The notes under the pieces are model-generated. The model made no database searches. It was not told the DNA's origin and was given only the letters and a program-made list of their open reading frames with translations. Source: a virus. From it: DNA of 40,320 nt. Position 1 is the stretch's first letter. Every line of letters begins with the position of its first letter. The stretch lies in the UHGV virus genome UHGV-1432856; one strand, given 5' to 3'. A program made the position numbers and the translations under genes. This document shows positions 1,478 through 37,983 of the stretch, in pieces.

Positions 1478-1537
1478 TCCTCACGCTCCAGAAACGACAA
1501 AACCGCCCTGAGGCGGTTTCACACAAAACATTCTGCA

Positions 1538-2850: not shown

Positions 2851-2855
2851 GGGAT

Positions 2856-3554: not shown

Positions 3555-3883
3555 CAGTTCACCACCTGTTCAAACTCTGCGCTGAACTCAACACGTAACA
3601 TACTGACCCGCGACGACCATTTTGCGCAGGTCACCTTTATCTGCCTGTAACCATAAGGCGGCGTCCACAGAAAGCCCTTCCAGCCCCCGTGCTCAGCCAG
3701 AAACGACTCCAGCGCTGTTGCCTCCTCGCGGGAGACAGAAAGCGTCACGCTGTACGTTTTCAGGTTGGCATTCAGCCCGGCAGGCGCTCGCTGGGAATAG
3801 CCATCACCAAAGCGCACCTTTCTTACAGAAGGGGCCGAAGCCACATCCATACCGGGTTTCACTTTCCAGCGGAAGGTTTTCAT
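3554..3883 (-). CDS. M: minor tail protein M
   Basis: 109 aa, MKTFRWKVKPGMDVASAPSVRKVRFGDGYSQRAPAGLNANLKTYSVTLS... matches lambda gpM; start overlaps H stop. Confidence 0.9.
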   Translation of the reverse strand: MKTFRWKVKPGMDVASAPSVRKVRFGDGYSQRAPAGLNANLKTYSVTLSVSREEATALESFLAEHGGWKGFLWTPPYGYRQIKVTCAKWSSRVSMLRVEFSAEFEQVVN

Positions 3884-6441
3884 CGTCCACCTCCGGAGAA
3901 CAGGCCACCATCACGCATCTGTGTCTGAATTTCATCACGGGCACCCTTGCGGGCCATGTCATACACCGCCTTCAGAGCAGCCGGACCTATCTGCCCGTTC
4001 GTGCCGTCGTTGTTAATCACCACATGGTTATTCTGCTCAAACGTCCCGGACGCCTGCGACCGGCTGTCAGCCAGACTGCCCGGTGTACCGACATAACCAC
4101 CGGTGGCATAGCCGCGCATCAGCCGGTAGAGATTCCCCACGCCAATCCGGCTGGTTGCCTCCTTCGTGAAGACAAATTCACCACGGTGAACAATCCCCGC
4201 TGGCTCATATTTGCCGCCGGTTCCTGTGAATCCTCCGGTTGCAAAATGGAATTTCGCCGCAGCGGCCTGAATGGCTGTACCGCCTGACGCGGATGCGCCG
4301 CCACCAACAGCCCCGCCAATGGCGCTGCCGATACTCCCGACAATCCCCACCATTGCCTGCTTAAGCAGAATTTCTGTCATCATGGACAGCACGGAACGGG
4401 TGAAGCTGCGCCAGTTCTGCTCACTGCCGGTCAGCATCGCTGCCATATTCTGTGCAATACCATCAAAGGTCTGCGTGGCTGCACTTTTTACCTGCGACAT
4501 ACTGTCCGTGGCGCTCTCTTCCCACTCACTCCAGCCGGACTTCAGGCCTGCCATCCAGCTCCCGCGAAGCTGGTCTTCAGCCGCCCAAGTCTTTTTCTGC
4601 TCTGACATGACGTTATTCAGCGCCAGCGGATTATCGCCATACTGTTCCTTCAGGCGCTGTTCCGTGGCTTCCCGTTCTGCCTGCCGGTCAGTCAGCCCCC
4701 GGCTTTTCGCATCAATGGCGGCCCGTTTTGCCCGTTGCTGCTGTGCGAATTTATCCGCCTGCTGCGCCAGCGCGTTCAGGCGCTCCTGATACGTAACCTT
4801 GTCGCCAAGTGCAGCCAGCTGGCGTTTGTACTCCAGCGTCTCATCTTTATGCGCCAGCAGGGATTTCTCCTGTGCAGACAGCTGGCGACGTTGCGCCGCC
4901 TCCTCCAGTACCGCGAACTGACTCTCCGCCTTCCACAAATCCCGGCGCTGCTGGCTGATTTTCTCATTTGCTCCGGCATGCTTCTCCAGCGTCCGGAGTT
5001 CTGCCTGAAGCGTCAGCAGGGCAGCATGAGCACTGTCTTCCTGACGATCGCCCGCAGACACCTTCACGCCGGACTGTTTCGGCTTTTTCAGCGTCGCTTC
5101 ATAATCCTTTTTCGCCGCCGCCATCAGCGTGTTGTAATCCGCCTGCAGGATTTTCCCGTCTTTCAGTGCCTTGTTCAGTTCTTCCTGACGGGCGGTATAT
5201 TTCTCCAGCGGCGTCTGCAGCCGTTCGTAAGCCTTCTGCGCCTCTTCGGTATATTTCAGCCGTGACGCTTCGGTATCGCTCTGCTGCTGCGCATTTTTGT
5301 CCTGTTGAGTCTGCTGCTCAGCCTTCTTTCGGGCGGCTTCAAGCGCAAGACGGGCCTTTTCACGATCATCCCAGTAACGCGCCCGCGCTTCATCGTTAAC
5401 AAAATAATCATCCTTGCGCAGATTCCAGATGTCGTCTGCTTTCTTAAACGCAGCCTCTGCCTTAATCAGCATCTCCTGCGCGGTATCAGGACGACCAATA
5501 TCCAGCACCGCATCCCACATGGATTTGAAGGCCCGCGCTGTCCTGTCTGCCCAGGTCTCCAGCGTGCCCATGTTCTCTTTCAGGCGGCGGGTCTGGTCAT
5601 CAAACCCTTTCGTTGCGGCCTCGTTCGCCGCCTGCAATGCCCCGGCTTCATCGCCGGAACGCTGCAACTGAGCAACATACGCAATCTGCTCCGCCGTCAC
5701 GTTATGGAACTGGCGTGCCATCGCTGTCAGCCCTGACGTCGGGTCTGTGGTCAGCTTCCCGAAGGCTTCAGCGACCTTGTCCACCTCCACGCCGGATGCA
5801 GAAGAGAAACGCGCCACACTCTGGCTGATGGACGCAATCTGAGCCTCACCGCTTACCCCCGCCTTAACCAGTGCACTGAGTGACTCGCTGGTCTGGTTAA
5901 ACGTCAGCCCTGCCGCCTGCCCGGCTCTGGACAGGACCAGCATACGATCTGCCGTCAGACCCGACTGATTACCGGAAAGGACCAGCGTTTTGTTGAAATC
6001 GGACAGGGTTGAGTCACCCTGATACCAGGCATACGCCAGCGCACCGGTCGCCACCGCCAGCGAGGTGGCCCCGACCATCGGCAGGGTGATCGCACCGGCA
6101 AGCCCCCGGAACATGGGGATCATCCCGCCGAAGGAGTCCTTAACCTGACCACCCTGTTGCAGCAGGATCAGCCACGGGCTTTGCCCGCCTGCAAGCTGCG
6201 TGGCCACGTCGGTGAACTGTGCAGGCAGCATACGCATGGCGGCTTTATACTGCCCGACGGAAATCCCCGCTTTCTGTGCAGCCAGCGCCTGTCGGCTCAG
6301 CGACTTTTCAACGACTGCCGCTGTTTTTTTCGCATCAGTTTCCGTGCCGGAAAAATGACGCCTGACTCTGGCCATCTGCTCGTCAAATCTGGCCGCATCC
6401 AGACTTAAATCAACGACCAGATCGCCTACCGGTTCAGCCAT
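3880..6441 (-). CDS. H: tail tape measure protein H
   Basis: 853 aa, the same length as lambda gpH; coiled-coil-rich centre and glycine-rich hydrophobic C-terminal segment; 8-nt overlap with the upstream T frame as in lambda. Confidence 0.95.
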   Translation of the reverse strand: MAEPVGDLVVDLSLDAARFDEQMARVRRHFSGTETDAKKTAAVVEKSLSRQALAAQKAGISVGQYKAAMRMLPAQFTDVATQLAGGQSPWLILLQQGGQVKDSFGGMIPMFRGLAGAITLPMVGATSLAVATGALAYAWYQGDSTLSDFNKTLVLSGNQSGLTADRMLVLSRAGQAAGLTFNQTSESLSALVKAGVSGEAQIASISQSVARFSSASGVEVDKVAEAFGKLTTDPTSGLTAMARQFHNVTAEQIAYVAQLQRSGDEAGALQAANEAATKGFDDQTRRLKENMGTLETWADRTARAFKSMWDAVLDIGRPDTAQEMLIKAEAAFKKADDIWNLRKDDYFVNDEARARYWDDREKARLALEAARKKAEQQTQQDKNAQQQSDTEASRLKYTEEAQKAYERLQTPLEKYTARQEELNKALKDGKILQADYNTLMAAAKKDYEATLKKPKQSGVKVSAGDRQEDSAHAALLTLQAELRTLEKHAGANEKISQQRRDLWKAESQFAVLEEAAQRRQLSAQEKSLLAHKDETLEYKRQLAALGDKVTYQERLNALAQQADKFAQQQRAKRAAIDAKSRGLTDRQAEREATEQRLKEQYGDNPLALNNVMSEQKKTWAAEDQLRGSWMAGLKSGWSEWEESATDSMSQVKSAATQTFDGIAQNMAAMLTGSEQNWRSFTRSVLSMMTEILLKQAMVGIVGSIGSAIGGAVGGGASASGGTAIQAAAAKFHFATGGFTGTGGKYEPAGIVHRGEFVFTKEATSRIGVGNLYRLMRGYATGGYVGTPGSLADSRSQASGTFEQNNHVVINNDGTNGQIGPAALKAVYDMARKGARDEIQTQMRDGGLFSGGGR

Positions 6442-6670
6442 ACCGGACTCCTCCTGCGATCCCTTCTGATACTGTCATCAGCATTACGTCATCCTCCGTC
6501 ATGTCCGCCACATCCGGGGAAGCGGGGATAACTTCTTTCCCATCCGGGCCAAAACGAACGCCTCCGGCAAGCCCTGCTGCTTTCTGCATCAGCACATCAT
6601 CTTCAGGCTCTTCGTCAGCCTCGCGCCGGTTCAGCAGACTGAAATCCAGCGGATGCATATCCGGATCGCT
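6434..6670 (-). pseudogene. T: 3' fragment of the T segment of the G-T tail assembly chaperone; 5' part and gene G missing
   Basis: Frame ends exactly 8 nt inside the H start, as lambda T does; the frame stays open only to 6721, and composition turns AT-rich above about 6670; where G, V and U should follow there are Mu-like genes instead. Confidence 0.55.
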
Positions 6671-6680
6671 GAAAAACAGG

Positions 6681-6814
<134 letters not shown>

Positions 6815-6842: not shown

Positions 6843-7232
6843 TTACTCTTTTTTCTCCGTATCTGCATCGGGTTCATCAGCAAATAGCTTGCCCTGCATC
6901 CGATCCAGTTCTTCTTTTCTTACCCGCTTAACCACGCTGTAGACCCACTGAAGCGAAACACCAAATTTGCGGGCCAGTTCGTGGTGGTTGCGTCCGTTAA
7001 ACTCCCTGAAGATTTCCCGGTCGCGCTGACTGACCTTCCATACCATGCCCATCGGGAAATAAACGTTTTGCCCGCCCCAGACCTGCATCATTCGGTTCGC
7101 GACGGCCTGACCAATCTGGTCGGCAACTTCGGGCTCAATATCAATAATCTCGCGAACGGTCTCAGAGGTATGCTGTGCCAGTTCCACCAGGAGTTCCGGC
7201 CCCTTACTTCGAAACTGATTCAGGTCGCTCAT
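6843..7232 (-). CDS. mor: Mor/C-family late transcription activator
   Basis: 129 aa (same length as Mu Mor); C-terminal HTH region FNGRNHHELARKFGVSLQWVYSVVKR resembles the Mor/C family; follows GemA as in Mu. Confidence 0.75.
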   Translation of the reverse strand: MSDLNQFRSKGPELLVELAQHTSETVREIIDIEPEVADQIGQAVANRMMQVWGGQNVYFPMGMVWKVSQRDREIFREFNGRNHHELARKFGVSLQWVYSVVKRVRKEELDRMQGKLFADEPDADTEKKE

Positions 7233-10684: not shown

Positions 10685-11851
10685 TTAAACCCCTTTGACA
10701 ACGTCAGCATTGACCTGTGGAACCCCGATTTCAGCGGCCAGATTCATGGCGGCTATCACCAGGTTACTGACGGCCAGCGGATACAGCAGGCTGACCATAT
10801 TTTTACGATGACTTCCCGGATTGCTCAGGCGGGCACGTATGGCATCCACTGCGCTGGCGTCCATAATGTCCGTCAGTTGTTTACCGGCCCGTTGCAGTTT
10901 GAACGTCAGAAATTCTTCAAGGTTATTGTCCAGAGGCAGAAGTTCGACCACCTCACAGCGCTGAACGACTTCACGGACTTCCATATTGCGTTCAGACAGT
11001 TTTGTCGCCAGTTCCGGCTGGCCAATCAGCACGATGGACAGCAGTTTTTTGAAACCGGACTCCAGCTCAAAAAAGCGTTTGAGGTGTTTCAGTGTCGGAA
11101 TGGGCAGACTGTGGGCCTCCTCAATCACCAGAACGTGGCTGAACCCCGCCTGGCTGCTGTCTTTCAGGACGCGATGCAACTGGCGAAAGCGGGCGTCCTG
11201 ACTGCGTCTGATGCTTTCCAGTGGTGCGATGGTACTGATAATGGCTTCGGCAATCGCTGCTGCCTTCAGGGTTTTCCCTTTCACATCGTTGTCTTCCATA
11301 GCGATGATGTATGGCTCGATAACAATTACCGGCGCATTCTCGCGGTTGATACGTTCAGTCAGGTCGCGGCGCAGCGTGGATTTACCCGCACCGGACTCAC
11401 CGATGACGGCCATAAACCCACCATGACGGGCTGTCTGGTACAACGCCTCACGCACGTAGCGAATGTCCGGGGTGGTGAACACATCATCAGAACCCTGCAT
11501 GGCTTCGTCGGCGAACGGGTCACGGAAAAGACCAAACGCTTTTTTGGTTGCTGGAAATAACACCTGTTTTTTGAGTAACATATTCTCTTCCTCACTGAGG
11601 CTCGTTTTATCTGTGGTACCCGCTGTACGGGGCGTGGCCGCGCCCTGTACAGCATCAAAACTCTTCGTTGTATCAATCCCCTGACTTTCCAGCCAGGACG
11701 CAAGACGCCGGCGCACTTCTCCGGGGCTGGTGCGGGGCCACGCGTTATGATTCACAATCTGGGCCAGCGTGGCCTCAGAAACATCGACAGCTCTCGCCAC
11801 CACCGCCTGTGGAATACGGGCCTCTTTCAGTTGCTGCTTCAGTACCAGCAT
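10685..11851 (-). CDS. B: transposition ATPase B (AAA+ P-loop, N-terminal HTH)
   Basis: Walker A GESGAGKS, Walker B-like VLVIEEAH; immediately downstream of the transposase; start taken at the Met preceded by GAGGAGGG, 10 nt after the A stop. Confidence 0.8.
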   Translation of the reverse strand: MLVLKQQLKEARIPQAVVARAVDVSEATLAQIVNHNAWPRTSPGEVRRRLASWLESQGIDTTKSFDAVQGAATPRTAGTTDKTSLSEEENMLLKKQVLFPATKKAFGLFRDPFADEAMQGSDDVFTTPDIRYVREALYQTARHGGFMAVIGESGAGKSTLRRDLTERINRENAPVIVIEPYIIAMEDNDVKGKTLKAAAIAEAIISTIAPLESIRRSQDARFRQLHRVLKDSSQAGFSHVLVIEEAHSLPIPTLKHLKRFFELESGFKKLLSIVLIGQPELATKLSERNMEVREVVQRCEVVELLPLDNNLEEFLTFKLQRAGKQLTDIMDASAVDAIRARLSNPGSHRKNMVSLLYPLAVSNLVIAAMNLAAEIGVPQVNADVVKGV

Positions 11852-11861
11852 GTTTCCCTCC

Positions 11862-13631
11862 TCAGTTGCCGTTAACAATGCTGATAACACTGCTGCTGGC
11901 CGGTGTGGTCAGCGTGGCCATGACTTCATCCAGTGCGGCTTCCGGTACGCCGTCCGGGTACTGTGCCGTTAACTGGCGGTAATGTTCCGGCGTCCAGGTA
12001 AGGCCGTCGGCGCTGAACTTATCGCGCAGGGCTTTCGCGGCCTCCACATGAGTCATGGGACGTTGTTCAGTGCGCGGCCCGCGTACGTCAGAGGCCTGAC
12101 CACGCTTCGGCATATAGGCCGGAAGTGTGGTGTCGTCGATATGTTTATACGGGTCAAGCCGCCCGCCGAACGGCAGCGCCTTCGCCTTGCGTGCGGCGGC
12201 TGCATCTGCGGCGTTGTCTGTACCGGTAACCAGCGCTTCGGTTTCTTTTGCCGCCATCTGTGCCGGGGTTTCCGGCAGGGCTTTGTAACTTTCGCCAAAT
12301 ACCGCCGCGCCTTCAGCAAAGCCAAACTCGTTCTTTCTGACCTCTTCGACCAGGAAGAACGTCTCGTGGCCGTCCTCACCGGTCAGAACCACCTGTGCCA
12401 CATCGCTGCGCCATGGGTTACGGGTAATCATCAGTTTTTCACCAACCAGTACGCCCGGTACCGTTGATACGTCAAATTCAGTGCCCCGGAACGAGACACG
12501 AAGTTTTGGCGTGACTTTGCGGAGTTCTGGTGCCGCCACAGCCAGTTCATGACATACCTCAACGGAAGGCGCTTTTTTCAGCTGCTCAGCAGTAATCTTC
12601 AGCCAGATATCCGTGCGGGTTTTACCGTGGCGGCTGTGAACAGCCGTGGCGTTAAAGTGGCTGCGCCATTTCGCGGCCAGCGCGTTGAGTTCTTCCAGAC
12701 TGTGAACCGGCCGGAACTTCAGACCCGGCTCCAGCTTGCGTTCGATAATGTCTCGCGCCTTTTCCACCTGTCCGGTGGCGCGGGCGTTATGCGGCTTGTG
12801 CGCTATCAGGTCGATGCCCAGTGAGCGGCACATGTTTTTCGTCATACCCGCGGTGTTTGCCGAGCCGGGGTCGAGATAGAGTATTTTTGGCACGCCGTGC
12901 AGCACGTCTGCGCCGCCACGCTCCTGCATGGCGTTGATAAGCACAGAACACAGGTTCTCACCTGATTCCGCGCCCGTCACATACTCAACGTAAATCCAGC
13001 CGCTGGCATGGTCGGTAATCTCGTAACTCCACACGCGGTCACTGGCGATACGGGCAAGGTTAGCGGGCTTGTTCTTGTAGAACTTCGCGCTGTCCATCAC
13101 CTGCAGCCCTTTATGTCCATTGCTCAGGTAGTAAAGCGTGCAGAGTGAGGCGTCAATCTGCCAGACATGATTGGGGTGCAGACTGGCCACTTCGGTATGC
13201 GGTGCAGGAGCATCCAGTTGTTCCGGGTGCAGGCCATAGTTACGCAGAGCACGGCTGATGGCATCTTCAGACAACGGGAAAAACTCACCGGTGGTTTCAT
13301 CTGTTCTGCCTGCGGTGATAAAGCCGTTAGCCCGCAGGGTTTCCACTGCATCTGCGATGGAATAGAGGCGCTTACCGTTCTTGCGGGTGGCCTCACGCAG
13401 TGTGGCAGATATCAGCGCGGCTTCGTCGCGGGTCAGGGCGCTGCGTCCGGCATCAGCGCGTTTTTTGCGTTTATCAGTCACAGAGACCTCCTTCAGCCTG
13501 CGCAGCAGAGTGGCGCGGGACATGCCAAGTTCAGCACAGGCAGCGTCGTATATTGCACCGCGTTTACCATGCCCCGCGTCACGTGCCGCGCGGGCGACAT
13601 AAACCAGTCGTTCAGTCAGGGCAGCATTCAT
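11862..13631 (-). CDS. A: DDE transposase (phage A-type, integrase-core fold)
   Basis: 589 aa; candidate catalytic triad HVWQIDAS / YLDPGSAN / GQVEKA (D, D, E); paired with the B ATPase. Confidence 0.85.
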   Translation of the reverse strand: MNAALTERLVYVARAARDAGHGKRGAIYDAACAELGMSRATLLRRLKEVSVTDKRKKRADAGRSALTRDEAALISATLREATRKNGKRLYSIADAVETLRANGFITAGRTDETTGEFFPLSEDAISRALRNYGLHPEQLDAPAPHTEVASLHPNHVWQIDASLCTLYYLSNGHKGLQVMDSAKFYKNKPANLARIASDRVWSYEITDHASGWIYVEYVTGAESGENLCSVLINAMQERGGADVLHGVPKILYLDPGSANTAGMTKNMCRSLGIDLIAHKPHNARATGQVEKARDIIERKLEPGLKFRPVHSLEELNALAAKWRSHFNATAVHSRHGKTRTDIWLKITAEQLKKAPSVEVCHELAVAAPELRKVTPKLRVSFRGTEFDVSTVPGVLVGEKLMITRNPWRSDVAQVVLTGEDGHETFFLVEEVRKNEFGFAEGAAVFGESYKALPETPAQMAAKETEALVTGTDNAADAAAARKAKALPFGGRLDPYKHIDDTTLPAYMPKRGQASDVRGPRTEQRPMTHVEAAKALRDKFSADGLTWTPEHYRQLTAQYPDGVPEAALDEVMATLTTPASSSVISIVNGN

Positions 13632-14868: not shown

Positions 14869-14920
14869 GTCACATTTCCATTTTTGCAATATGTGATAAC
14901 CTGTTGCATATGTGGAAAAT

Positions 14921-15109
14921 TTATGCCGCATTTGACGTGGGTTTTAATCCCAGTTTTACGGCAATTTCATGGGCTTTGCCGTAACGAGCTTTGGTCTGTC
15001 CATTGAGAACACGATAGACCTCATTGCGGCTGTAGCCGTGTTCTTCGGCCCAGCGGGTAAACGTGATACCACGCTGACGGAAGAGATTTTTAACTTGTTC
15101 GGAAGTCAT
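14921..15109 (-). CDS. small HTH DNA-binding protein in the Cro/Ner position
   Basis: 62 aa, first gene of the leftward operon, divergent from the XRE repressor; AGGAG RBS; not clearly homologous to Mu Ner, assigned by position and HTH-like pattern. Confidence 0.55.
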   Translation of the reverse strand: MTSEQVKNLFRQRGITFTRWAEEHGYSRNEVYRVLNGQTKARYGKAHEIAVKLGLKPTSNAA

Positions 15110-15159
15110 TGTTGTCTCCTTTGTTGATGCAATGATGTTTGTTTTATATGTGATAGATT

Positions 15160-15179
15160 ATGAGAACTATTGTTCTCAT
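15160..15179. promoter_or_regulatory. putative operator: inverted repeat ATGAGAAC-TATT-GTTCTCAT
   Basis: Perfect 8-bp arms with 4-bp spacer, inside the 86-bp divergent region between the Cro/Ner-like and repressor genes. Confidence 0.45.
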
Positions 15180-15195
15180 TGTCAATGAGGTTTAT

Positions 15196-15621
15196 GTGAA
15201 TTTTGATTCTCTTTGCGCGTCGCGGTTCAAAGCTGAGCGTTCGCGGTTATCACTCAAGCAGGCTGAAGTAGCAGCCCTTTGTGGCGTTTCAAGAGAAATG
15301 TGGGGGAAATATGAACGAGGGGTTGCTGTTCCCGGAGGTGAGTTACTTGCAGCCTTTGCAAGAATTGGGGCCAATGTACAGTTCATTCTTACCGGGGAGT
15401 CATCAGGTATAACTTTATCACGTGATGAAATGGAGTTACTGCAGCACTACCGGCAGGCACCATTACAGGTCAAAGGTTCAGTTTTGTCGGCCTTGACTAC
15501 TGGCTCCTCCAGAGAACGGGCGGAACAGGTTATTCATGGAGATGTTCTGGGGAATGTTATCAAAGGTAACGTAACCATAGGAACAGGTGGAATAATGAAC
15601 AAAAATACCAAGAGAAGATGA
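15196..15621 (+). CDS. XRE-family HTH transcriptional regulator, probable prophage repressor
   Basis: HTH LSLKQAEVAALCGVSREMWGKYERG; start placed at GTG 15196 (GAGG at 5 nt spacing); the track ORF starts at ATG 15160 inside the palindrome; divergent from the early operon. Confidence 0.65.
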   Translation: MNFDSLCASRFKAERSRLSLKQAEVAALCGVSREMWGKYERGVAVPGGELLAAFARIGANVQFILTGESSGITLSRDEMELLQHYRQAPLQVKGSVLSALTTGSSRERAEQVIHGDVLGNVIKGNVTIGTGGIMNKNTKRR

Positions 15622-17313: not shown

Positions 17314-17790
17314 TTAAGGATTATCCGGGGCGTTTTCCTGTTTGCCGTACTTCGGAGACGAACAACATTCTGTTGGCTGACCGGTGAGTTTACGTAACTC
17401 CTTCATGAGCAGCTCCTGATCGTAAACTGTCATCAGTGCCGCAATGGTGGCATGCAGTGCATCGGGCAGTATCCAGGGTTGCCGGCCCGTGGGGCATATA
17501 ACATCCAGCAGCTCATTCGTCCGACAGATACGCTCCTCGCCGTATGACAACAGGCCCTGTCCCGTGTATTCCTCCAGCCTGATCACTGTGCCACCCCGTG
17601 GCTTCTGCCAGGTCGTCAGATCTTCGCCATTCATACGGCGCTCATTCTCCACGTCAGCAGCATCGACAATGACGCTGTTTCCGAGTTCCTGTTTCACCAT
17701 CTCTTCTATCCGCGCCAGTACGTAACTTTTACCGCTGCCCACAGGACCGGACACAGTGACAGTGATGACCGGATTCAGTGTGTGCGTCAT
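17314..17790 (-). CDS. small P-loop protein, NMP/shikimate-kinase-like
   Basis: 158 aa; Walker A GPVGSGKS at residues 15-22 followed closely by VIVDAADVE, resembling small P-loop kinases; strong GAGGAG RBS; convergent with the cassette. Confidence 0.55.
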   Translation of the reverse strand: MTHTLNPVITVTVSGPVGSGKSYVLARIEEMVKQELGNSVIVDAADVENERRMNGEDLTTWQKPRGGTVIRLEEYTGQGLLSYGEERICRTNELLDVICPTGRQPWILPDALHATIAALMTVYDQELLMKELRKLTGQPTECCSSPKYGKQENAPDNP

Positions 17791-17849
17791 ATCGTATTCT
17801 CCTCTGTGAATAATTCATCGTTTATCCTGCACATCCCGTATCCCCGGCT

Positions 17850-17870
17850 CTCTTAACGCGCTTTAAAATC
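17850..17870 (+). promoter_or_regulatory. degenerate copy of the late-region motif, upstream of the lysis genes
   Basis: CTCTTAA-CGCG-CTTTAAAATC, about 50 nt upstream of the ATG at 17921; compare 31232-31253 and 37583-37604. Confidence 0.3.
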
Positions 17871-17920
17871 CTTCGCGCCCTGTATTTGTGATGCTGTCTC
17901 CACCAGATAAGGAGACACAC

Positions 17921-18214
17921 ATGAAAAACCTGAAAAAATTCATTCCCCCTGTTAAAAAACCTCGCCTCAGCGGCTGGCTGCTGACCTCAGTGCTGTTGCT
18001 GGGCACCATCGCTCTGGTCTCACCACAGCAGCTGCCTGTTGTGATCTACAAGCTGGCACTCATCACGCTGGCAGCAGTGCTGGGTTACTGGCTTGACCGT
18101 TCGCTCTTCCCCAAAGCCCGTCCCGGTCAGTACCTGAAACATGACGACAGGCTGATGGCTGAAGGGCGTTTCCCGGTACAGACCGGCCTTCACCTGGTGT
18201 TTTCTGCTGCGTAA
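17921..18214 (+). CDS. small two-TM membrane protein, putative holin
   Basis: Start MKNLKKF with AAGGAG RBS; two hydrophobic helices; directly upstream of the endolysin; the track ORF starts at 17888. Confidence 0.45.
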   Translation: MKNLKKFIPPVKKPRLSGWLLTSVLLLGTIALVSPQQLPVVIYKLALITLAAVLGYWLDRSLFPKARPGQYLKHDDRLMAEGRFPVQTGLHLVFSAA

Positions 18215-19971: not shown

Positions 19972-20282
19972 TGGTCGATATTACCCGGGTACGCCGCGAA
20001 TCCCTGCGCTGGAGTCTGCTGGTTGCCCTGAACAAGACCCGCCCTTACACCGCCAGCGAGACGCTGCTGCTGGATGTGTCCCGTGCCATCTACCCGGACA
20101 CCACACCGCTGGAACTGCGCCGCGAACTGGATTATCTGGCTGACCGTAAAATGGTTGATCTGGAGAAAAAACCTTCTGGCGACTGGTTTGCTGACCTGAC
20201 CCGCCTCGGCGTAGACCTGGTGGAATACACCGTGGAATGTGGTCCGGGTATTGCCCGCCCGGAAAAGTACTGGAGTGAATAA
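19971..20282 (+). CDS. hypothetical protein (Mu gp26 position)
   Basis: 103 aa; overlapping start/stop with neighbours; by synteny only. Confidence 0.45.
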   Translation: MVDITRVRRESLRWSLLVALNKTRPYTASETLLLDVSRAIYPDTTPLELRRELDYLADRKMVDLEKKPSGDWFADLTRLGVDLVEYTVECGPGIARPEKYWSE

Positions 20283-20827
20283 TGGCCAGACGCAGCACAA
20301 TAGAAAAGCTGCCGGAAGATGTGCGCCGCTGGCTTGAACGGGCGCTGACTGAATCCGGCTTCAGCGGGTATAACGAGCTGGAGTCCCTGCTGCGTGAGCG
20401 GGGGTACGTCATCAGCAAATCCGCTATCCATCGCTATGGACAGAAGATTGAGCGCCGCTATGGTGCTATCCGTGCGGCAACAGAAGCGGCCCGCATGCTG
20501 ACCGAAGGCGCAGCAGACGATCAGGATGCGCGTTCGGAGGCTGTGATAGCCCTTATTCAGACCGAGCTGTTCGAGAGTATTGTCCAGTTGCAGGAGGCGG
20601 AAGAAGGCGAAGTCGATCCTAAAGAACGCGTGGCCCTGCTGTCGAAGGTGGCGAAGAATGTGGCTACGCTGTCCCGCGCGTCCGTCAACCTCAAAAAGTT
20701 CCAGTCTGAAGTACGGGCCAGAGCGCAGCAGGCAGCCAGCAACGCCGAGAAAATTGCCCGTAAGGGGGGACTGTCAAGCGACGCAGTACAGGCGCTTCGT
20801 CGCGAGATTCTGGGGATTGCCACATGA
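20282..20827 (+). CDS. Mu gp27-like DNA-binding protein, putative small terminase subunit
   Basis: 181 aa; MARRSTIEKLPEDVRRWLERAL N-terminus typical of gp27-like proteins; immediately upstream of the large terminase. Confidence 0.55.
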   Translation: MARRSTIEKLPEDVRRWLERALTESGFSGYNELESLLRERGYVISKSAIHRYGQKIERRYGAIRAATEAARMLTEGAADDQDARSEAVIALIQTELFESIVQLQEAEEGEVDPKERVALLSKVAKNVATLSRASVNLKKFQSEVRARAQQAASNAEKIARKGGLSSDAVQALRREILGIAT

Positions 20828-24718: not shown

Positions 24719-25177
24719 ATGGCTTCCGATAACCTGGTCAGTATCACCATTAACGATAAATCCCTGCGCCGGAGCCTCCGTGCGCTGGATCTTGCTGCCA
24801 CAGACCTGGAGCCCGCGATGCGCAAAATCGCCGGAACCCTGCTGGCGGAAACACAGTTTAACTTTCTTGATGAGGGGCGTCCGGGGTGGATCCCCTCGCT
24901 GGCAGCGGAAGAACGTGACGGGCAGACACTGCAGGATACCGGGCGTCTGATGGGGTCAGTATCAACCGACCATGACGACCGGCAGGCTGTTGTGGGGACC
25001 AACGTTGTTTACGGTGCCATTCACCAGTTCGGGGGTAAAACGGGGCGTAATGAGTCTGTTGAACTTCCGGCCCGCCCGTTCCTGCCGGTGACGGGGGATG
25101 GAGAACTACAGCCTGAAGTGGTAATCCCCATCCTCGATACCATTGTCCGCCATCTTGAATCAGCGGCCCGTCGCTGA
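24719..25177 (+). CDS. virion morphogenesis protein (Mu G-like)
   Basis: 152 aa; synteny (after F, before I). Confidence 0.55.
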   Translation: MASDNLVSITINDKSLRRSLRALDLAATDLEPAMRKIAGTLLAETQFNFLDEGRPGWIPSLAAEERDGQTLQDTGRLMGSVSTDHDDRQAVVGTNVVYGAIHQFGGKTGRNESVELPARPFLPVTGDGELQPEVVIPILDTIVRHLESAARR

Positions 25178-25391
25178 GTTTTCTCTCTTCAGGCGGGTGA
25201 TTTATCATTGCCAGCGAATGAGGGGCTGTATTACCTTTATAAAGGCTTTACAGCCTCTGTTTTATAACCGCCTCCGGTTCACCGCATTGCTTTCCCTGTC
25301 CTTCTCCCCTGATGTTTTCTAAAGCAGATTAAAATCGCCGGGCCTGCATTTCTCACAAACTGTCTCCGACAACATAACGCGGGACAGCAAA

Positions 25392-26507
25392 ATGTCAGCC
25401 ATTCACATTTTTAAAGCCGGTACTCATACCGATATGCACGGCAAAAAACTGCCGTTCACGCCAGACGATCTTGCCGCCTGCGTGAAAGCCTATGACCCGT
25501 CCGTCCATGAAGCACCACTCGTGATTGGTCATCCCAGAACGGAAGACCCGGCGTGGGGCTGGGTGAAAGCCCTGTCGCTCAGCGGCGTCGATCTGATGGC
25601 AGAGCCTGCCCAGCTGGACCCGCAGTTTGCTGAGATGGTCACCGACGGACGATTCAAAAAAGTGTCCGCCTCTTTCTACCTCCCGGATTCACCGTCCAAT
25701 CCGAAGCCCGGCGTGCTCTACCTTCGCCATGTGGGCTTTCTCGGGGCACAGCCACCTTCCGTCAAGGGGCTGAAACAGGTGTCCTTCAGTGAGCAGGAAG
25801 AAGGTGTGGTGGAGTTCGCCGACTGGCAGGCCATCACGAATGCCTCCCTGTGGGGAAAGCTGCGCGATTTTCTGATCGCCCGCTTCAGTCTGGACGAGGC
25901 AGAAAAAGTCCTGCCGGAATGGCAGCTCAACAGTCTGCGCGAAGAGGCGTACCGCGACACACTGTCGCAGGATGCAGCAGGTGCACAATTCAGTGAGACA
26001 GGCCCGGGGCCGTCTTCCGCAAGTAACGAGGAATCATCGATGACAAAAGAAGAGATTGAAGCCCTTCAGGAGGAGAACCGCCGCCTGAAGCTGCAGGCTG
26101 CTGATCGCGATGCGCGTGATGCACAGGTCAGACAGGAGCAACTGCATAAGGACAATGTGGCCTTTGCAGAAAAACTGGTCGCAGAGGGCCGTCTGGCTCC
26201 CCGCGCCTCCTCCGTGGTGGTTGCCCTGCTGGATGCCGTCGCCGGTGGCGACAAGCCGGTGGAGTTTGCTGAGGGGGAAAGCCGCACACCGCTGGCCACC
26301 GCCTTTCGTTCATTGCTCTCCGACGGGGAGCCGGTGATGAATTTCGCCGAACAGGCCACAAAAGAGCGTGTCGGCGACACGGTGAAGGTGGATGTGGCAG
26401 AGTTTGCGGAAGCCGATCCTGAGCGTCTGGCCCTGCATCAGAAAGCAGTGGCCCTGTCCAAAAAAGAAGGCATCAGCTATGAGGCTGCTGTCGCACGCTG
26501 CCTGTAA
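25392..26507 (+). CDS. head maturation protease / scaffold (Mu I-like)
   Basis: 371 aa; N-terminus MSAIHIFKAGTHTDMHGKKLPFT typical of Mu I-like proteins; coiled-coil C-terminal half; precedes the major head gene. Confidence 0.75.
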   Translation: MSAIHIFKAGTHTDMHGKKLPFTPDDLAACVKAYDPSVHEAPLVIGHPRTEDPAWGWVKALSLSGVDLMAEPAQLDPQFAEMVTDGRFKKVSASFYLPDSPSNPKPGVLYLRHVGFLGAQPPSVKGLKQVSFSEQEEGVVEFADWQAITNASLWGKLRDFLIARFSLDEAEKVLPEWQLNSLREEAYRDTLSQDAAGAQFSETGPGPSSASNEESSMTKEEIEALQEENRRLKLQAADRDARDAQVRQEQLHKDNVAFAEKLVAEGRLAPRASSVVVALLDAVAGGDKPVEFAEGESRTPLATAFRSLLSDGEPVMNFAEQATKERVGDTVKVDVAEFAEADPERLALHQKAVALSKKEGISYEAAVARCL

Positions 26508-30403: not shown

Positions 30404-30924
30404 TGTCAAAGATTGAGATAAACCGCATCACGAATGCCAACATCTATCTGGATGGTACTAACCTGCTGGGACGGGCTGAGGAAGTTAAACTCCCCGATGT
30501 CTCCATGATTATGCAGGAACACAAGGCGCTGGAGATGGTGGGTAAGGTGGAACTCCCGGCTGGTTTTGACAAACTGGAAGGCGAAATCAAATGGAACAGC
30601 TTTTACCGCGATGCGATGCTGTCTGCCGCGAACCCGTACAGGTCGCTGGCACTGCAGTGTCGTTCCAGCGTCCAGCGCTACAGCTCGCAGGGGCTGATTG
30701 ACGAAATCCCGCTGGTCACCTTCCTGACGATTATGTTCAAGAAGAACCCGCTGGGGACGTTCAAACAGCACGAGAACGCCGAGTTCTCCAGTAGCTTCAC
30801 CTGCACGTATATCAGACAGGTACTGGATGGTGAAGAGCTGCTGCAACTGGACTATCTGGCCAACATCTTCCGGGTCGGCGGTGTTGATCAACTGACTGAC
30901 TACCGTATCAATATCGGGGGCTGA
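30403..30924 (+). CDS. tail tube protein (Mu M-like)
   Basis: 173 aa; ATGA-type overlap with the sheath gene. Confidence 0.8.
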   Translation: MSKIEINRITNANIYLDGTNLLGRAEEVKLPDVSMIMQEHKALEMVGKVELPAGFDKLEGEIKWNSFYRDAMLSAANPYRSLALQCRSSVQRYSSQGLIDEIPLVTFLTIMFKKNPLGTFKQHENAEFSSSFTCTYIRQVLDGEELLQLDYLANIFRVGGVDQLTDYRINIGG

Positions 30925-31214: not shown

Positions 31215-31240
31215 AGGGGCTCCGGCCCCTTCTTCTTAAT
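31215..31240 (+). terminator. Rho-independent terminator-like hairpin
   Basis: AGGGGC-TCCG-GCCCCT perfect 6-bp stem followed by TCTTCTTAAT. Confidence 0.45.
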
Positions 31241-31253
31241 CTCCTTTAATATC
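31232..31253 (+). promoter_or_regulatory. conserved late-region motif CTTCTTAA-N3-CCTTTAATATC (copy 1)
   Basis: 19 of 22 nt identical to 37583-37604; about 50 nt upstream of the chaperone gene start at 31306. Confidence 0.4.
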
Positions 31254-31305
31254 CGTCACGCGCTTCTCCCGACATACTGCCCTGAACTTACACAGGAGCA
31301 CAATC

Positions 31306-31798: not shown

Positions 31799-34750
31799 AT
31801 GTCGGGACAGTTTTCAGTCGGCGTTGTTATCGGCGGGATGATTGGTAGCACATTCCGTTCTGCAATGAGCGGTACCCGCCGTGCGCTTGATTCCCTGAGC
31901 GATACCTCACGCCGCCTGCAGGAACGTCAGAACGCTTTAACCCGTGCAACAGAACGTTATGGTCAACTGGGTTCTTCCCGGATGCAGCATCTCAACAGCG
32001 AGCTGCTGCGGGTAAGCCGCACCATGGAGCAAATTGAGCGCCAGCAGCGCCGTCTGTCAGCGGCATCCGCTACCAGTGATGCGCTGAAAGCTAACCGCAT
32101 GGCGCTGTATGGTCAGGGGATTGAAGCGTATGGCATGGCACAGACTGTTTATCATACGGTTTCCCCTGCCGTTCAGCAGTCCATGTCTTTTCAGGACAAA
32201 ATGATTGATATGTCGATCACCGCAAAATATGACAATAAAACGCGGGATGCACTTGCCGGACAGATAAAAGGCTGGGCGCTTAAATACAATCAGTATCAGG
32301 ATGAGCTGCAGGAGGCGGTGGGTTCACTCATCAGCGACAATATTGATAATGTGTCAGATATCGGTTTTCTGATGCCGGATATTGCCCGCGCGGCAACGGC
32401 AACACGCACGTCTGCTCAGGACTGGGCAAAAGTGGCCGCAGTCTGGCAAAACTCCCTGAAAGGTGCGGCCAGAGATTTTGGTGCCGTTCAGAATATTATG
32501 GCTTATGCCGGTGACCAGGGGTCATTTGAAATCCCGGATCAGGTCAAGTGGATGCAGTCCCTGGCCCCAATGATGGCGGGTATTGCCAGTGGAAAAGAGG
32601 CTGTTGCTGAAATCGGGGCCAGTCTCCAGATAGCAAAAATCGGTGCAGGTTCCACCGACGAAGCAGCCAATAATTTTAAAAACTTTCTTACCAAAATTTT
32701 TGCCCGCGATACTCAGAAACAGTTTGCTGATCTGGGTATTGATTTGCAGGGATCTATTGCGAGTTATAAAGCTGCGGGGATCTCTCCGATTGAAGGGATG
32801 TTGAGTGTTATAGAACGTTACCTCAATGCCAAAAGCCCCGAAGCGCTGGCCGGCTTCAAATCAGCCATGAAAATAAAGAATGATACGGCAAGAGATGAGG
32901 CACTTCAGGCTCTGGCGAAAAACTTTGGTCTGGGCGATATGTTCGCGGATATGCAGGTCATGGCATTTATCCGCCCGATGCTGGCCAACATGGACAGATA
33001 TCGAGAGATCCGTGCCGGTGCTCTCAGGGCTGCGGATAACGATTTGCTTGCCAGTGCTTATGATCAGCGGCTGAAATCTCCCCTTGAAGCCACTAAAGCA
33101 CTTATGGTCAGCAGTCGTGATCTGGCAATTACGCTGGGCGATCAATTAGCTCCATCTTTTATTTCTCTGACTCAGGAACTGCTTCCACTCATTCAGGGGG
33201 CAAAACACTGGGTAGCGACTCACCCGCAATTTGTCAGTGGGGCTTTTAAGCTCATCAGTGCGCTCCTTGCGATTAAGATAGCGACTGTTGGTCTCAAACT
33301 GGGGCTGAATCTCCTTATTTCCCCCTTTGTAAGTGTCTGGAAAAATGCTGTTTTACTTCGGGCCAACTGGCTTCGTCTGTCGCTCGCACTGGGGCAAGGC
33401 GGTAAGCTCCGCTGGCTGGTGACCGGATTTAGCGCCGTCGCCAAAGGAGCCAGAACACTGAGTGGCGTGCTCTCCGGGGGGCTGGTTCGCGGAATTATGC
33501 TCGCCGGACGTGCTGTTCTCTGGATTGGACGTGCGCTGATGATGAATCCCATCGGTCTCGTTATCACCGCTGTCGCGGCAGCAGCTTACCTTATCTACCG
33601 CAACTGGGGGGCAGTCAGTGGCTGGTTTAAACAGCGCTGGGCAGACATTCAGGAAGCCTTTAACGGCGGCATTGTGGGAATTGGTAAGTTGCTGATTAAC
33701 TGGTCGCCGGCAGGCCTGCTCTATAAAGCCTTTGCGGCTGCGCTGAAATATTTCGGCGTTGCTCTGCCGGCAAAGTTCACCGACTTCGGTGGCCATCTTA
33801 TCGACGGTCTGATTAACGGTATCAAAAACAAATGGGGGTCGCTCAAATCCAGTGTAACCGGAATGGGTGACAGCATCAGTAGCTGGTTTAAACAGTGCTG
33901 GGCTGACATTCAGGAAGCCTTTAACGGCGGTATCGCGGGAACTGGTAAGCTGCTGATTAACTGGTCGCCGGCAGGTCTGCTCTATAAAGCCTTTGCAGCT
34001 GCGCTGAAATATCTTGGTGTTGATCTGCCGGCAAAGTTCACCGACTTCGGTGGCCATCTTGTCGACGGTCTGATTAACGGTATCAAAAACAAATGGGAGT
34101 CGCTCAAATCCAGTGTAACCGGAATGGGTGACAGCATCAGTGGCTGGTTCAGCGAAAAGCTGGGCATTCATTCGCCGAGCCGCGTGTTTATGGGCTTTGG
34201 TGACAATATCGCGCAGGGGGCCGCCATTGGCCTGCAGCGGACCACTCCGCTTGCAGCTCTGGCCGGGCAGCGAATGGCCAGTGAACTGCTCCCCAAAATG
34301 CCCGTGAGCATTCAGGGGCCAGAAATACGGGATAACACTTCAGGTGTTCGCTTCAGTATGCCGTTGCCCGATATCAATGGGTTTATGTCGTCTGCTAAAA
34401 ATGCGATCGGAGCCGTAATCAATAGTTTGTCTTCCATGCCCGCTATTCCGCTCTCCACCCGGGCATCGATTTTACCAGGGCAACGTCTGGCAAATGAGAT
34501 GACACCGGATGTTCCCCGTATCCCCTCGCCTGAAATCCTGGCTGCCGGATATTCAGGCCGTGGTGCAGCTGCAACCGGCGGTGGAACGTCTGGTGGTATC
34601 CAGGTCAGCTTTAATCCTCAGTTTTTCCTCAATGGCAGGGAAACCACAGCGCCTGCCGGACTGACTGGCGCCCTGAATATGAGCCTGCATGAGCTGGAAA
34701 AAATGCTGGAGCGTCTGCTGGCTCAGAAACAACGTAAGGAGTACCGCTGA
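31799..34750 (+). CDS. tail tape measure protein
   Basis: 983 aa, helical and repeat-rich; between the chaperone and N-like gene; GGAGG RBS. Confidence 0.85.
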   Translation: MSGQFSVGVVIGGMIGSTFRSAMSGTRRALDSLSDTSRRLQERQNALTRATERYGQLGSSRMQHLNSELLRVSRTMEQIERQQRRLSAASATSDALKANRMALYGQGIEAYGMAQTVYHTVSPAVQQSMSFQDKMIDMSITAKYDNKTRDALAGQIKGWALKYNQYQDELQEAVGSLISDNIDNVSDIGFLMPDIARAATATRTSAQDWAKVAAVWQNSLKGAARDFGAVQNIMAYAGDQGSFEIPDQVKWMQSLAPMMAGIASGKEAVAEIGASLQIAKIGAGSTDEAANNFKNFLTKIFARDTQKQFADLGIDLQGSIASYKAAGISPIEGMLSVIERYLNAKSPEALAGFKSAMKIKNDTARDEALQALAKNFGLGDMFADMQVMAFIRPMLANMDRYREIRAGALRAADNDLLASAYDQRLKSPLEATKALMVSSRDLAITLGDQLAPSFISLTQELLPLIQGAKHWVATHPQFVSGAFKLISALLAIKIATVGLKLGLNLLISPFVSVWKNAVLLRANWLRLSLALGQGGKLRWLVTGFSAVAKGARTLSGVLSGGLVRGIMLAGRAVLWIGRALMMNPIGLVITAVAAAAYLIYRNWGAVSGWFKQRWADIQEAFNGGIVGIGKLLINWSPAGLLYKAFAAALKYFGVALPAKFTDFGGHLIDGLINGIKNKWGSLKSSVTGMGDSISSWFKQCWADIQEAFNGGIAGTGKLLINWSPAGLLYKAFAAALKYLGVDLPAKFTDFGGHLVDGLINGIKNKWESLKSSVTGMGDSISGWFSEKLGIHSPSRVFMGFGDNIAQGAAIGLQRTTPLAALAGQRMASELLPKMPVSIQGPEIRDNTSGVRFSMPLPDINGFMSSAKNAIGAVINSLSSMPAIPLSTRASILPGQRLANEMTPDVPRIPSPEILAAGYSGRGAAATGGGTSGGIQVSFNPQFFLNGRETTAPAGLTGALNMSLHELEKMLERLLAQKQRKEYR
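33613..34134 (+). repeat. in-frame tandem duplication, 2 x 261 bp, inside the tape measure gene
   Basis: SGWFKQRWADIQEAFNGGI...GIKNKWGSLKSSVTGMGDSIS repeated with few substitutions at an exact 261-nt offset (33622 versus 33883). Confidence 0.8.
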
Positions 34751-37582: not shown

Positions 37583-37604
37583 CTTCTTAAACGCCTTTAA
37601 TATC
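37583..37604 (+). promoter_or_regulatory. conserved late-region motif CTTCTTAA-N3-CCTTTAATATC (copy 2)
   Basis: 19 of 22 nt identical to 31232-31253; about 30 nt upstream of the ATG at 37636; followed by GGGGGC-AATACT-GCCCCC hairpin. Confidence 0.4.
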
Positions 37605-37635
37605 AGCGTTCCCGCACGGGGGCAATACTGCCCCC

Positions 37636-37983
37636 ATGAAAACGACCTCAGTATTCTGGCAACCAGCCCTGCAGGCTCCCGGCGAAATTGTCCGGGGGCT
37701 GGATGATATCCGGCAGGCGATTCAAATTATCCTGCGGACTCCCCGCGGCAGCGACCCGCATCGCCCGGAGTTCGGCAGCAATCTGCATCTTTATATCGAC
37801 TGGCCTGTAGACCGGGCCATTCCGCATGTGGTGCGCGAATCCGTCGATGCCATCCGGCGCTGGGAGCCCCGCTGCCAGCTTATGTCAGTTAAACCCGCCG
37901 TCGACGGCGAACATCTTACGCTCCGGGTGAGCTGGAAAGGCTCAGACGGACAGACCCGGACTCAGGAGCTGCTATGGCGCTGA
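37636..37983 (+). CDS. baseplate protein, GPW/gp25 lysozyme-like family
   Basis: 115 aa; size and position typical of GPW/gp25 between spike and J-like genes. Confidence 0.65.
   Translation: MKTTSVFWQPALQAPGEIVRGLDDIRQAIQIILRTPRGSDPHRPEFGSNLHLYIDWPVDRAIPHVVRESVDAIRRWEPRCQLMSVKPAVDGEHLTLRVSWKGSDGQTRTQELLWR

Follow-up and report, generated by a model that had tools for sequence, protein, structure and literature searches.

The G-I gap of a BcepMu-like prophage is probably a late-operon control region laid out like that of bacteriophage Mu

Introduction

Late promoters of bacteriophage Mu have a -10 hexamer and no -35 hexamer, and carry a 16-bp imperfect dyad for a dimer of the activator C, centred at -43.5 (PMC2582627). 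One of them, P_I, lies between the head genes G and I, in the same intergenic region as the phage's strong gyrase site (SGS), where both gyrase cleavage and a role in replication are proven. Counted past G, the Mu record AF083977 shows a gyrase cut (+20), a terminator hairpin (+49 to +94) and P_I (+118 to +184). The right arm of the SGS is reported to be essential in Mu, and among sites from other sources the one from E. coli O157 Sakai alone could stand in for the Mu SGS (reviewed in PMC10052514). For BcepMu, the corresponding region between genes 31 and 32 was the subject of no published analysis in the literature that we searched, nor did we find there any published regulatory analysis of the prophage family considered here.

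Here we describe the G-I gap in a 40,320-nucleotide stretch of viral DNA (UHGV virus genome UHGV-1432856), which is referred to as the window. A first-pass annotation, made from the sequence alone, had drawn attention to this gap and had suggested by analogy with Mu that it might hold a gyrase site and a late promoter. Our analysis indicates that the gap is probably a control region between two late operons of a BcepMu-type prophage, built like the Mu G-I region.

Results

The window contains a BcepMu-like transposable prophage

The element in the window is a BcepMu-like (Bcepmuvirus) transposable prophage. Its early genes run leftward and encode a Mor-family activator (6843-7232), GemA, Gam, an AAA+ transposition protein (10685-11890) and an rve transposase (11862-13631), and its late genes run rightward, comprising holin, terminase, a Mu-type portal, F, G, I, the major head protein and a P2-like tail. 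The left end of the prophage is position 6681, within the tail module of a lambdoid prophage, and the right end falls outside the window. An intact copy (L042), which occupies gspL in E. coli M9682-C1 and runs from 1580 to 37998 (36.4 kb), served as the reference for positions relative to the whole element.

Around the gap, the window shares 99.8% identity with Escherichia phage PhiKM and ~87% with Klebsiella phage KP12 clone 2 and Phi06_2974 B, with BcepMu and phiE255 as weaker matches. The gap sequence itself was found unchanged in 637 of 5426 complete E. coli genomes (about 1 in 8), scattered over many chromosomal sites and present up to three times, as fits a transposing phage. Carriers of the prophage family include ST131 strains and many other Enterobacterales. 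The KP12 annotation ties the family to the Salmonella Typhi CT18 gene STY1594, and all four conserved islands of the gap (see below) are present in a phage copy whose G protein is assigned by NCBI to Salmonella enterica.

The gap is noncoding, central and conserved in four islands

The gap had been described as 214 bp of noncoding DNA at positions 25178-25391, the longest interruption of the late arm. Its boundaries are the exact separation of the G-like gene, labelled 'phage virion morphogenesis protein' by PGAP in the intact copy, and the I-like gene (Table 1), and the remaining late-arm gaps of the intact copy, taken from its PGAP annotation, measure 157, 130, 97 and at most 54 bp. The proposed location at the genome centre also held: in the intact copy the gap occupies 20079-20292 and the centre is at 19789, placing the gap ~0.3 kb (0.9%) to the right of the centre, at 50.9% of 36.4 kb.

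We gathered 36 loci from species-representative genomes by I-protein alignment. In those with a G homologue upstream, the G-I gap mostly measures 192-242 bp, from Enterobacterales to Burkholderia, with two shorter (L036, L040) and three longer gaps (L031, L032, L033). The gap is noncoding and similar in length in relatives, sits at the genome centre, and is collinear with the annotated Mu G-I region, which supports the conserved position that had been claimed. An alignment of seven enterobacterial gap types (A2) revealed four conserved islands, I1 to I4, separated by poorly conserved DNA.

A small protein encoded in the gap is very improbable. A 59-aa open reading frame exists (25143-25322), and KP12 has an annotated 41-aa one at the same place. 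However, the gap lengths of relatives (203, 204, 206, 211, 213, 214 and 215 bp) are not multiples of 3 apart (differences of 1, 3, 8, 10 and 11 bp), and this frame, the sole one in question, covers the least conserved stretch of the gap, begins with a TTG inside G that lacks a ribosome-binding site, and is left uncalled by PGAP across hundreds of genomes. On these grounds (frame-breaking lengths, poor conservation and the absence of a PGAP call) we rejected a coding role. Scanning the region against Rfam with an E-value ceiling of 10 returned only chance-level matches.

Table 1. Features of the G-I gap, its flanking genes and related late-control elements in the window
Feature	Positions	Strand	Sequence	Remarks
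G-like virion morphogenesis gene	24719-25177	+		last gene of upstream late operon; Pfam PF05069 (Phage_tail_S), E 1e-22
Island I1	25192-25204	.	GGCGGGTGATTTA	15-27 bp past G stop; candidate gyrase cleavage core GGGT^GATT^T by Mu analogy
Two-tier, terminator-like hairpin	25221-25267	+		38-bp imperfect palindrome, then TGTTTTATAA
Island I2 (Block A)	25234-25256	.	CCTTTATAAAGGCTTTACAGCC	within the palindrome; unique in genome
Variable pyrimidine-rich spacer	25257-25313	.		least conserved columns of A2
Island I3 in A2	25314-25337		TTTTCTAAAGCAGATTAAAAG	conserved columns
Predicted Mor-family activator site (island I3, Block B)	25318-25335	+	TCTAAAGCAGATTAAAAT	about -50 to -33; 25.5 bits
Island I4	25349-25394			TTTTCC through -10 and leader to ATG
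Predicted -10 hexamer of P_I	25356-25361	+	CAAACT	20 nt after activator site
Leader inverted repeat	25360-25387	+	CTGTCTCCG (25360-25368) / CGGGACAG (25380-25387)	spans -10/start side and ribosome-binding site
I-like head protease/scaffold gene	25392-26507	+		first gene of downstream late operon; 51% identity to BcepMu gp32 ('Mu I equivalent')
Sister late promoter, holin gene	17852-17895	+		activator site and -10 GATGCT
Sister late promoter, tail assembly gene at 31306	31235-31278	+		-10 CATACT
Sister late promoter, W-like baseplate gene at 37636	37586-37629	+		-10 AATACT, 6 nt before ATG
Mor/C-family transcription activator gene	6843-7232	-		Pfam Mor PF08765, E 1e-43

Islands I3 and I4 form a predicted Mor/C-type late promoter

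Taken together, I3 and I4 read as a well-supported candidate for a Mor/C-type late promoter equivalent to Mu P_I. The P_I sites of 8 relatives, not including the window, were used to construct an 18-nt matrix, with which both strands (80 kb) were scanned. The best match in the window was the I3 site, and when a -10 hexamer at the fixed spacing was included, the top four plus-strand matches began at 25318, 17852, 31235 and 37586, each directly upstream of a late operon. The late promoter suggested for the gap was thus recovered with a matrix derived from relatives only, as one of four at late-operon starts. In BcepMu the same matrix logic picked out the promoters of the holin, I and baseplate genes, and in KP12 it picked out four sites.

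All four window promoters share one design, consisting of an 18-nt element, yTAAAsC-N3-w-TTAAWAK, and, exactly 20 nt further on, a hexamer whose second position is A and whose sixth is T (GATGCT, CAAACT, CATACT and AATACT); the core of the activator site in the gap reads TCTAAAGC...TTAAAAT. A spacing of 20/21 nt to the A2/T6 hexamer is invariant in P_I of 11 relatives, including Serratia-, Pectobacterium- and Burkholderia-type phages, and the geometry also occurs in Neisseria prophages, there with a different gene before I. Searched elsewhere in the window, the Block B pattern recurs only as a looser motif, and no operator-like copies were found in the early control region (14880-15200).

A search of the plus strand found no sigma-70 -35/-10 pair. 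As in Mu, the -10 hexamer CAAACT stands without a -35 hexamer, and the dyad-like site is centred at about -42 to -43, assuming a start 7-8 nt past the -10; the element precedes each late operon, and the phage carries a Mor/C-family gene, whose counterpart in the intact copy is labelled 'Mor transcription activator family protein' by PGAP. The product of this gene is presumed to activate all four late promoters. By its resemblance to Mu, P_I would depend on this activator binding at 25318-25335, and the spacing predicts a transcription start near 25368.

The predicted leader could shield the ribosome-binding site of I

Within I4, an inverted repeat joins the -10/start side to the leader, and its 3′ arm, CGGGACAG, contains the ribosome-binding site of I. 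In A2 the arms vary only by G.U-compatible substitutions, and distant relatives keep the stem with other letters (CCCCC/GGGGG, ACACTG/CAGTGT); a like arrangement, TGTCTCC/GGAGACA, is found at the holin promoter. Since the predicted start falls at or downstream of the 5′ arm, pairing would be possible only in read-through RNA. The ribosome-binding site is complementary to DNA upstream of the start, so read-through transcripts would be translationally silent, their ribosome-binding site possibly being shielded by fold-back.

Fold-back control inhibits translation of the IS10 and IS50 transposases. The likeness to those elements lies in a ribosome-binding site whose complement is found immediately upstream of the gene's own start; the arrangement here differs in that it is deduced from predicted starts only and in that it concerns late phage genes rather than a transposase. 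At BcepMu P_I and at the W-gene promoter of the window, the -10 is so near the ATG that a leaderless mRNA is predicted, and leader features are hence not a general trait.

A lineage-variable hairpin encloses a deeply conserved motif

The inverted repeat GGCTGTA-N18-TACAGCC, noted in the first-pass annotation, is present at 25224-25230 / 25249-25255, and its outer arms turned out not to be conserved as such. It sits within an imperfect palindrome of 38 bp (25221-25258) whose inner part, CCTTTATAAAGG, is a perfect one, and the conserved portion consists of this inner motif and the right arm. Covariation of the repeat's stem was not significant. The arms vary by lineage: E. coli types have GGGGCTGTA/TACAGCCCC, BcepMu types GTAAAGC/GCTTTAC and L020 CAACGCC/GGCGTTG, and the L013 and L015 types have no outer stem, keeping only the inner palindrome (6-7 bp stem).

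As RNA, the palindrome is predicted to fold with -20.3 kcal/mol (z -3.6 vs shuffles). The counterpart in Mu (17907-17948), annotated as a terminator in AF083977, is likewise two-tier, with -19.8 kcal/mol, and occupies a like position; as it lies in the right arm of the SGS, the repeat in the window corresponds in position and structure to the hairpin of the Mu right arm. A hairpin followed by a U-run is found in the window, L113, L020, L021 and BcepMu. In the KP12 type, L133 and L121 the run is weak or absent, so the role for which the hairpin is conserved may be something other than termination, and a plain terminator is unable to explain why 16-18 nt of sequence are kept between E. coli and Burkholderia phages. 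The terminator reading is therefore only moderately supported.

The conserved letters of the palindrome make up I2, or Block A, with the core CCTTTATAAAGGCTTTAC (in A2, CCTTTATAAAGG(C)TTTACAGCC). Block A is conserved far beyond its surroundings, in E. coli-, Klebsiella-, Pectobacterium- and Serratia-type phages, BcepMu (GTTTTATAAAGGCTTTAC) and a Marinobacterium prophage, and is nearly always inside a hairpin-capable palindrome. A scan of IMG/VR with the Block A 16-mer returned 119 loci, of which 57 had a homologue of G, of I or of both (both in 52); the 37 distinct loci with both homologues all have Block A between G and I in one orientation. The remaining 62 loci have neither homologue and are nearly all A/T-rich or coding matches unrelated to the element. 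Two loci, L121 and L137, have an extra gene between Block A and I, with Block A remaining on the G side.

A pattern search for further copies of Block A in the window found none. On the minus strand (25235-25252, TGTAAAGCCTTTATAAAG), Block A is the third-best window match to the activator matrix, with 14.0 bits, ~4.8 sd above the mean. As a promoter it was rejected, since neither strand has a -10 at the family spacing. The distances from Block A to P_I were also checked for helical phasing; they range from 62 to 103 bp and are unphased. Block A is the one element that known functions do not fully explain.

Island I1 shares a short core with the Mu gyrase site

Columns 15-29 of A2, corresponding to I1, are invariant or near-invariant, with differing flanks. 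I1 has in common with the Mu SGS Topo-Seq fragment an 11-mer, GCGGGTGATTT, that spans the cut and matches GenBank Mu at 10 of 11 positions. In the published 133-nt fragments the Mu cut reads GCGGGT^GATT^TTATG (GCGGCT in GenBank Mu), to which GGCGGGT GATT TATC corresponds in the window. The 11-mer ends ~21 bp after the G stop, compared with 20 bp in Mu, and the match to Mu is on the opposite strand relative to the G-to-I direction. The chance of such a cut-spanning core match anywhere in the gap is ~0.003-0.02, as estimated after the match had been seen, and we regard the match as suggestive but statistically weak. Beyond this inverted core, similarity to the Mu SGS was not significant, and in ungapped comparison the best window matches of 20- to 34-mers from the Mu core fall outside the gap.

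As stand-ins for the published weight matrix, unweighted versions of the 133-nt Topo-Seq consensus were run as the whole site or as the core plus one arm. The gap site scored z 1.7-2.6 (top 0.7-5%) and the true Mu SGS z 2.1-3.0 (top 0.3-2%), the latter without being singled out within Mu, for which reason this score was rejected as a test. A/T phasing at 10-11 bp across 25206-25256 is in the top 0.13% of the window, yet is a weak signal and only its 7th-ranked cluster; the Mu right arm ranks 10th in Mu. A Mu-like central gyrase site is possible in the gap, with I1 and Block A as its sole candidates.

An internal transposase site in I1 was considered separately and rejected: the terminal repeats G[AC]GATAAATG have the core GATAAAT, which the reverse complement of I1 contains, and this match is short and not kept in the L013 type.

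Discussion

A control region built like the Mu G-I region

The layout that we propose, which would make the gap a control region of the Mu kind, runs as follows. A conserved 13-bp motif ~20 bp past the G stop would be followed by a two-tier hairpin with an A/T-rich centre and a T-run, which would end or stabilise the holin-to-G transcript and would carry the second deeply conserved motif. Past a variable pyrimidine-rich spacer, a Mor-family activator bound to the 18-bp dyad-like site (~-50 to -33) would recruit host RNA polymerase to CAAACT, with a start at ~25368. The resulting transcript would have a 24-nt leader, and the ribosome-binding site would be exposed only in transcripts begun at P_I. 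The parts concerning the promoter are the firmest, in that its conservation, its recurrence before other late operons, its fixed geometry, the activator gene and the collinearity with Mu are all observed; activator binding, the start site, termination and shielding would follow from these by comparison.

The comparison with Mu is close in arrangement. Each gap separates homologous G and I head genes at the centre of its genome (the Mu cut is at 48.7%), and the two are of similar length, 196 bp in Mu and 214 bp here. Past G, I1 covers +15 to +27 in the window, the hairpin with its T-run +44 to +90, and the promoter +141 to +191. Mu also has a C/T-rich spacer (17954-17976), the same hexamer CAAACT in P_I (18018-18023) and a leader of ~25-26 nt with an inverted repeat. 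In contrast, nothing in the two gaps can be aligned save the inverted 11-bp core, the activator-site sequence differs, and Block A has no sequence counterpart in Mu; gyrase cleavage and a part in replication, both proven for Mu, would apply here by positional analogy.

A similar balance is seen with the C/Mor-dependent promoters of Mu (Plys, PI, PP, Pmom, Pm). The prophage likewise has late promoters, four in number, before its lysis, head and tail operons, with a -10 and no -35, a dyad-like site at ~-50 to -33 and a Mor-family activator gene at the end of the early operon. Unlike Mu, which has separate Mor and C, it has one Mor-family gene, it has a different recognition sequence, yTAAAsC-N3-TTAAWAK, and two promoters appear leaderless.

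These results provide a concrete late-transcription map for the prophage family, with four promoters of one design and one presumed activator, and indicate that the Mu G-I layout also occurs in a phage lineage whose transposase is different and whose early arm is inverted. They also bear on the general question of whether transposable phages need a central DNA-topology site, for which I1 (25192-25204) and Block A (25234-25256) are defined targets that can be mutated without touching the promoter.

What the G-proximal half of the gap may do

The role of the two G-proximal motifs is less clear than that of the promoter, and several readings have to be weighed. That the half from ~25185 to 25270 is a strong gyrase site, cut at GGGT^GATT^T and wrapping the hairpin region on the I side, is a reasonable positional analogy with Mu, to which we give somewhat less than an even chance; processive supercoiling from the centre would then help the prophage ends to pair for replicative transposition, as in Mu. 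A Mu-type SGS is a single central site between G and I, and here the gap lies at 50.9% of the intact copy, between the same genes, with Block A occurring once in the window. The identity of the 11-mer to the Mu SGS fragment across the cut, at an equal distance from the G stop, the conservation of I1 between differing flanks, the A/T phasing in the top 0.13% of the window and the Mu-like hairpin on the I side, where the essential right arm of Mu lies, all point the same way. The classical gyrase cleavage pattern, given by Lockshon and Morris in 1985 reportedly as YRT^GNYNNY, is fitted by the core at 5 of 6 positions. Central fragments of Mu-like prophages, including that of Salmonella Typhi CT18, which we take from the STY1594 note in KP12 to be a relative of this family, are said to have all been cleaved by gyrase in work by Oram and Pato in 2004; specific cleavage at the CT18 centre would favour a gyrase site here, but the Salmonella fragment reportedly neither supported Mu replication nor enhanced processive supercoiling. 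Further points against it are that longer Mu core words match better elsewhere in the window, that the core is inverted relative to G-to-I, that the consensus scores reach only the top 0.7-5% on a scale that fails to single out the true Mu SGS, that the I1-I2 spacing varies by 9 bp among subtypes, and that BcepMu lacks I1 and has weak phasing. A 16-nt motif kept across host orders is moreover more typical of a sequence-specific protein than of gyrase, and only the O157 Sakai site has substituted for the Mu SGS (PMC10052514). Alternatively, the G-proximal elements might act at the RNA level only, as a terminator or a 3′-end stabiliser of the upstream late transcript, with no role in DNA topology; the conserved letters would then reflect a constraint on RNA, such as a processing or protein-binding site. 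We consider this rather less likely than not. The stable hairpin with a U-run in the five cases named above agrees with it, as do the differing left arms that complement one conserved right side across lineages, the one-sided changes in the 3′ arm that yield G.U pairs on plus-strand RNA (in the window and L009) and the annotation of the Mu counterpart as a terminator. However, many relatives have no U-run, L121 and L137 keep Block A despite a separate canonical terminator upstream, the L013 and L015 types retain the motif with a short stem only, no Rfam family matches, and sequence conservation of terminators over such distances is rare.

Block A may also be viewed as a DNA site for a protein. 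It could be an orphan Mor-family activator site in opposite orientation and without a -10, acting as a roadblock, an insulator, a decoy or a local organiser of DNA, which we regard as improbable; we know of no precedent for orphan Mor/C sites. Apart from its third rank in the window with the relatives' promoter matrix, a broader matrix places Block A in the top ~10 of 70,000-80,000 positions in the window, BcepMu and KP12, and most of the better-scoring positions listed with that matrix are true promoter sites on either strand; its broader-matrix scores are nevertheless lower (9-11 bits), and with the enterobacterial matrix it falls outside the top 10 in BcepMu and KP12. In BcepMu a 9-mer, CGTAAAGCC, is common to Block A and P_I, in register, and the BcepMu-type Block A is palindromic (GTAAAGC...GCTTTAC), as expected for a dimer, but the left half-site is lost in E. 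coli-type phages. Two copies of Block A stand 10 bp apart in L021-L023, which would suit an activator site, whereas the missing -10 on both strands, the variable and unphased distance to P_I and the gene inserted between the two in L121 and L137 would not. Quite improbable, in our estimation, is that Block A is a family-wide single-copy central site that loops the prophage for end pairing, through a sequence-specific protein with or without gyrase at the core motif; that protein may be the Mor-family activator or another phage or host factor. If this were true, Block A would serve BcepMu-type phages as the gyrase site serves Mu.

BcepMu itself offers a further comparison for the region as a whole. 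Between its homologous genes 31 and 32 it has a 202-bp gap at 51.0% of the genome with the same Block A and promoter motif, and it differs in the absence of I1, in its hairpin arms and in a P_I that is probably leaderless. Before BcepMu gp49, an activator-type -10/ATG arrangement is found like that at the W-like gene of the window.

Overlapping signals at the predicted late promoters

The activator site of the predicted holin promoter, a putative 18-nt Mor-family site, also scores on its minus strand (window 17824-17867, minus strand), with the -10-like hexamer CAGGAT at the spacing of the family (19.0 bits). This second match faces the divergent gene at 17314-17790, and a single activator site may drive two promoters here. 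The holin gene has the ribosome-binding site GGAGACA, the perfect complement of TGTCTCC (window 17895-17917); the latter stretch overlaps the gene's own promoter at its -10 and start region. The ribosome-binding site would be hidden in read-through RNA coming from the repressor-side operon.

In the promoter that precedes the W-like baseplate gene (window 37624-37638), only 6 nt lie between the end of the -10 hexamer AATACT and the ATG, and the predicted mRNA would therefore be leaderless. An equivalent layout, CAACAT-GGCCGC-ATG, is present upstream of gp49 in BcepMu (about 30809-30825) and probably also upstream of BcepMu gene 32, whose annotated start (18850) looks 15 nt too early.

Gap between the G-like and I-like genes

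The stop codon of the G-like gene is overlapped by another hairpin resembling a terminator, TCAGCG...CGCTGA with GTTTTCTCTC after it (window 25160-25187). The reverse complement of the sequence island I1 within the gap (AATGATAAATCAC; window 25196-25210, minus strand) includes GATAAAT. This heptamer forms the core of the four terminal repeats, G[AC]GATAAATG, which are presumably bound by the transposase (positions 1580-1630 and 37940-37998 of L042, the intact prophage copy in E. coli M9682-C1); the resemblance is short and is absent from relatives of the L013 type. In L021, L022 and L023, prophages of Pantoea and Symbiopectobacterium symbionts, Block A, the second island of the gap, occurs as two copies arranged head to tail at a 10-bp offset, equal to one helical turn (CCTTTATAAACCTTTATAAAGG). 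In two IMG/VR loci (L121 and L137), an additional, inserted gene that has a ribosome-binding site of its own separates Block A from gene I, stretching the G-I gap to ~1 kb, and a canonical terminator lies upstream of Block A.

For Mu's strong gyrase site (SGS), the fragment given by the Topo-Seq supplement has GCGGGT^GATT; the GenBank sequence of Mu has GCGGCT^GATT (position 17883). This single-base discrepancy adjoins the cut, and either strain variation or one of the nuB up-mutations could account for it.

Prophage ends, tail genes and database records

The transposable prophage sits inside a lambdoid prophage, within the tail module of the latter (window 1-6680); the left end of the transposable prophage, TGATTAGAC..., lies at 6681, close upstream of the lambdoid tape measure gene.

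Genes of the lambdoid prophage tail module in the window
Feature	Position	Strand
Tape measure gene	3880-6441	minus
Lambda M, L, K and I homologues	1538-3883	minus

Within the tape measure gene of the transposable prophage, TCTATAAAGCCTTTGC occurs twice, 261 bp apart (window 33720-33735 and 33981-33996), probably as an internal coding repeat. The right end of intact copies bears an invertible segment of tail-fibre genes, Mu-like and accompanied by a recombinase (36151-37920 in L042); the segment lies past the end of the window.

Among the records of relatives, OM835952.1 ('Klebsiella phage KP12 clone KP12_2') is classified under Vequintavirinae, yet its genome is that of a BcepMu-like transposable phage. 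PQ738613.1 (PhiKM) holds part of a genome in permuted form, with the Mor end fused to the tail-fibre end.
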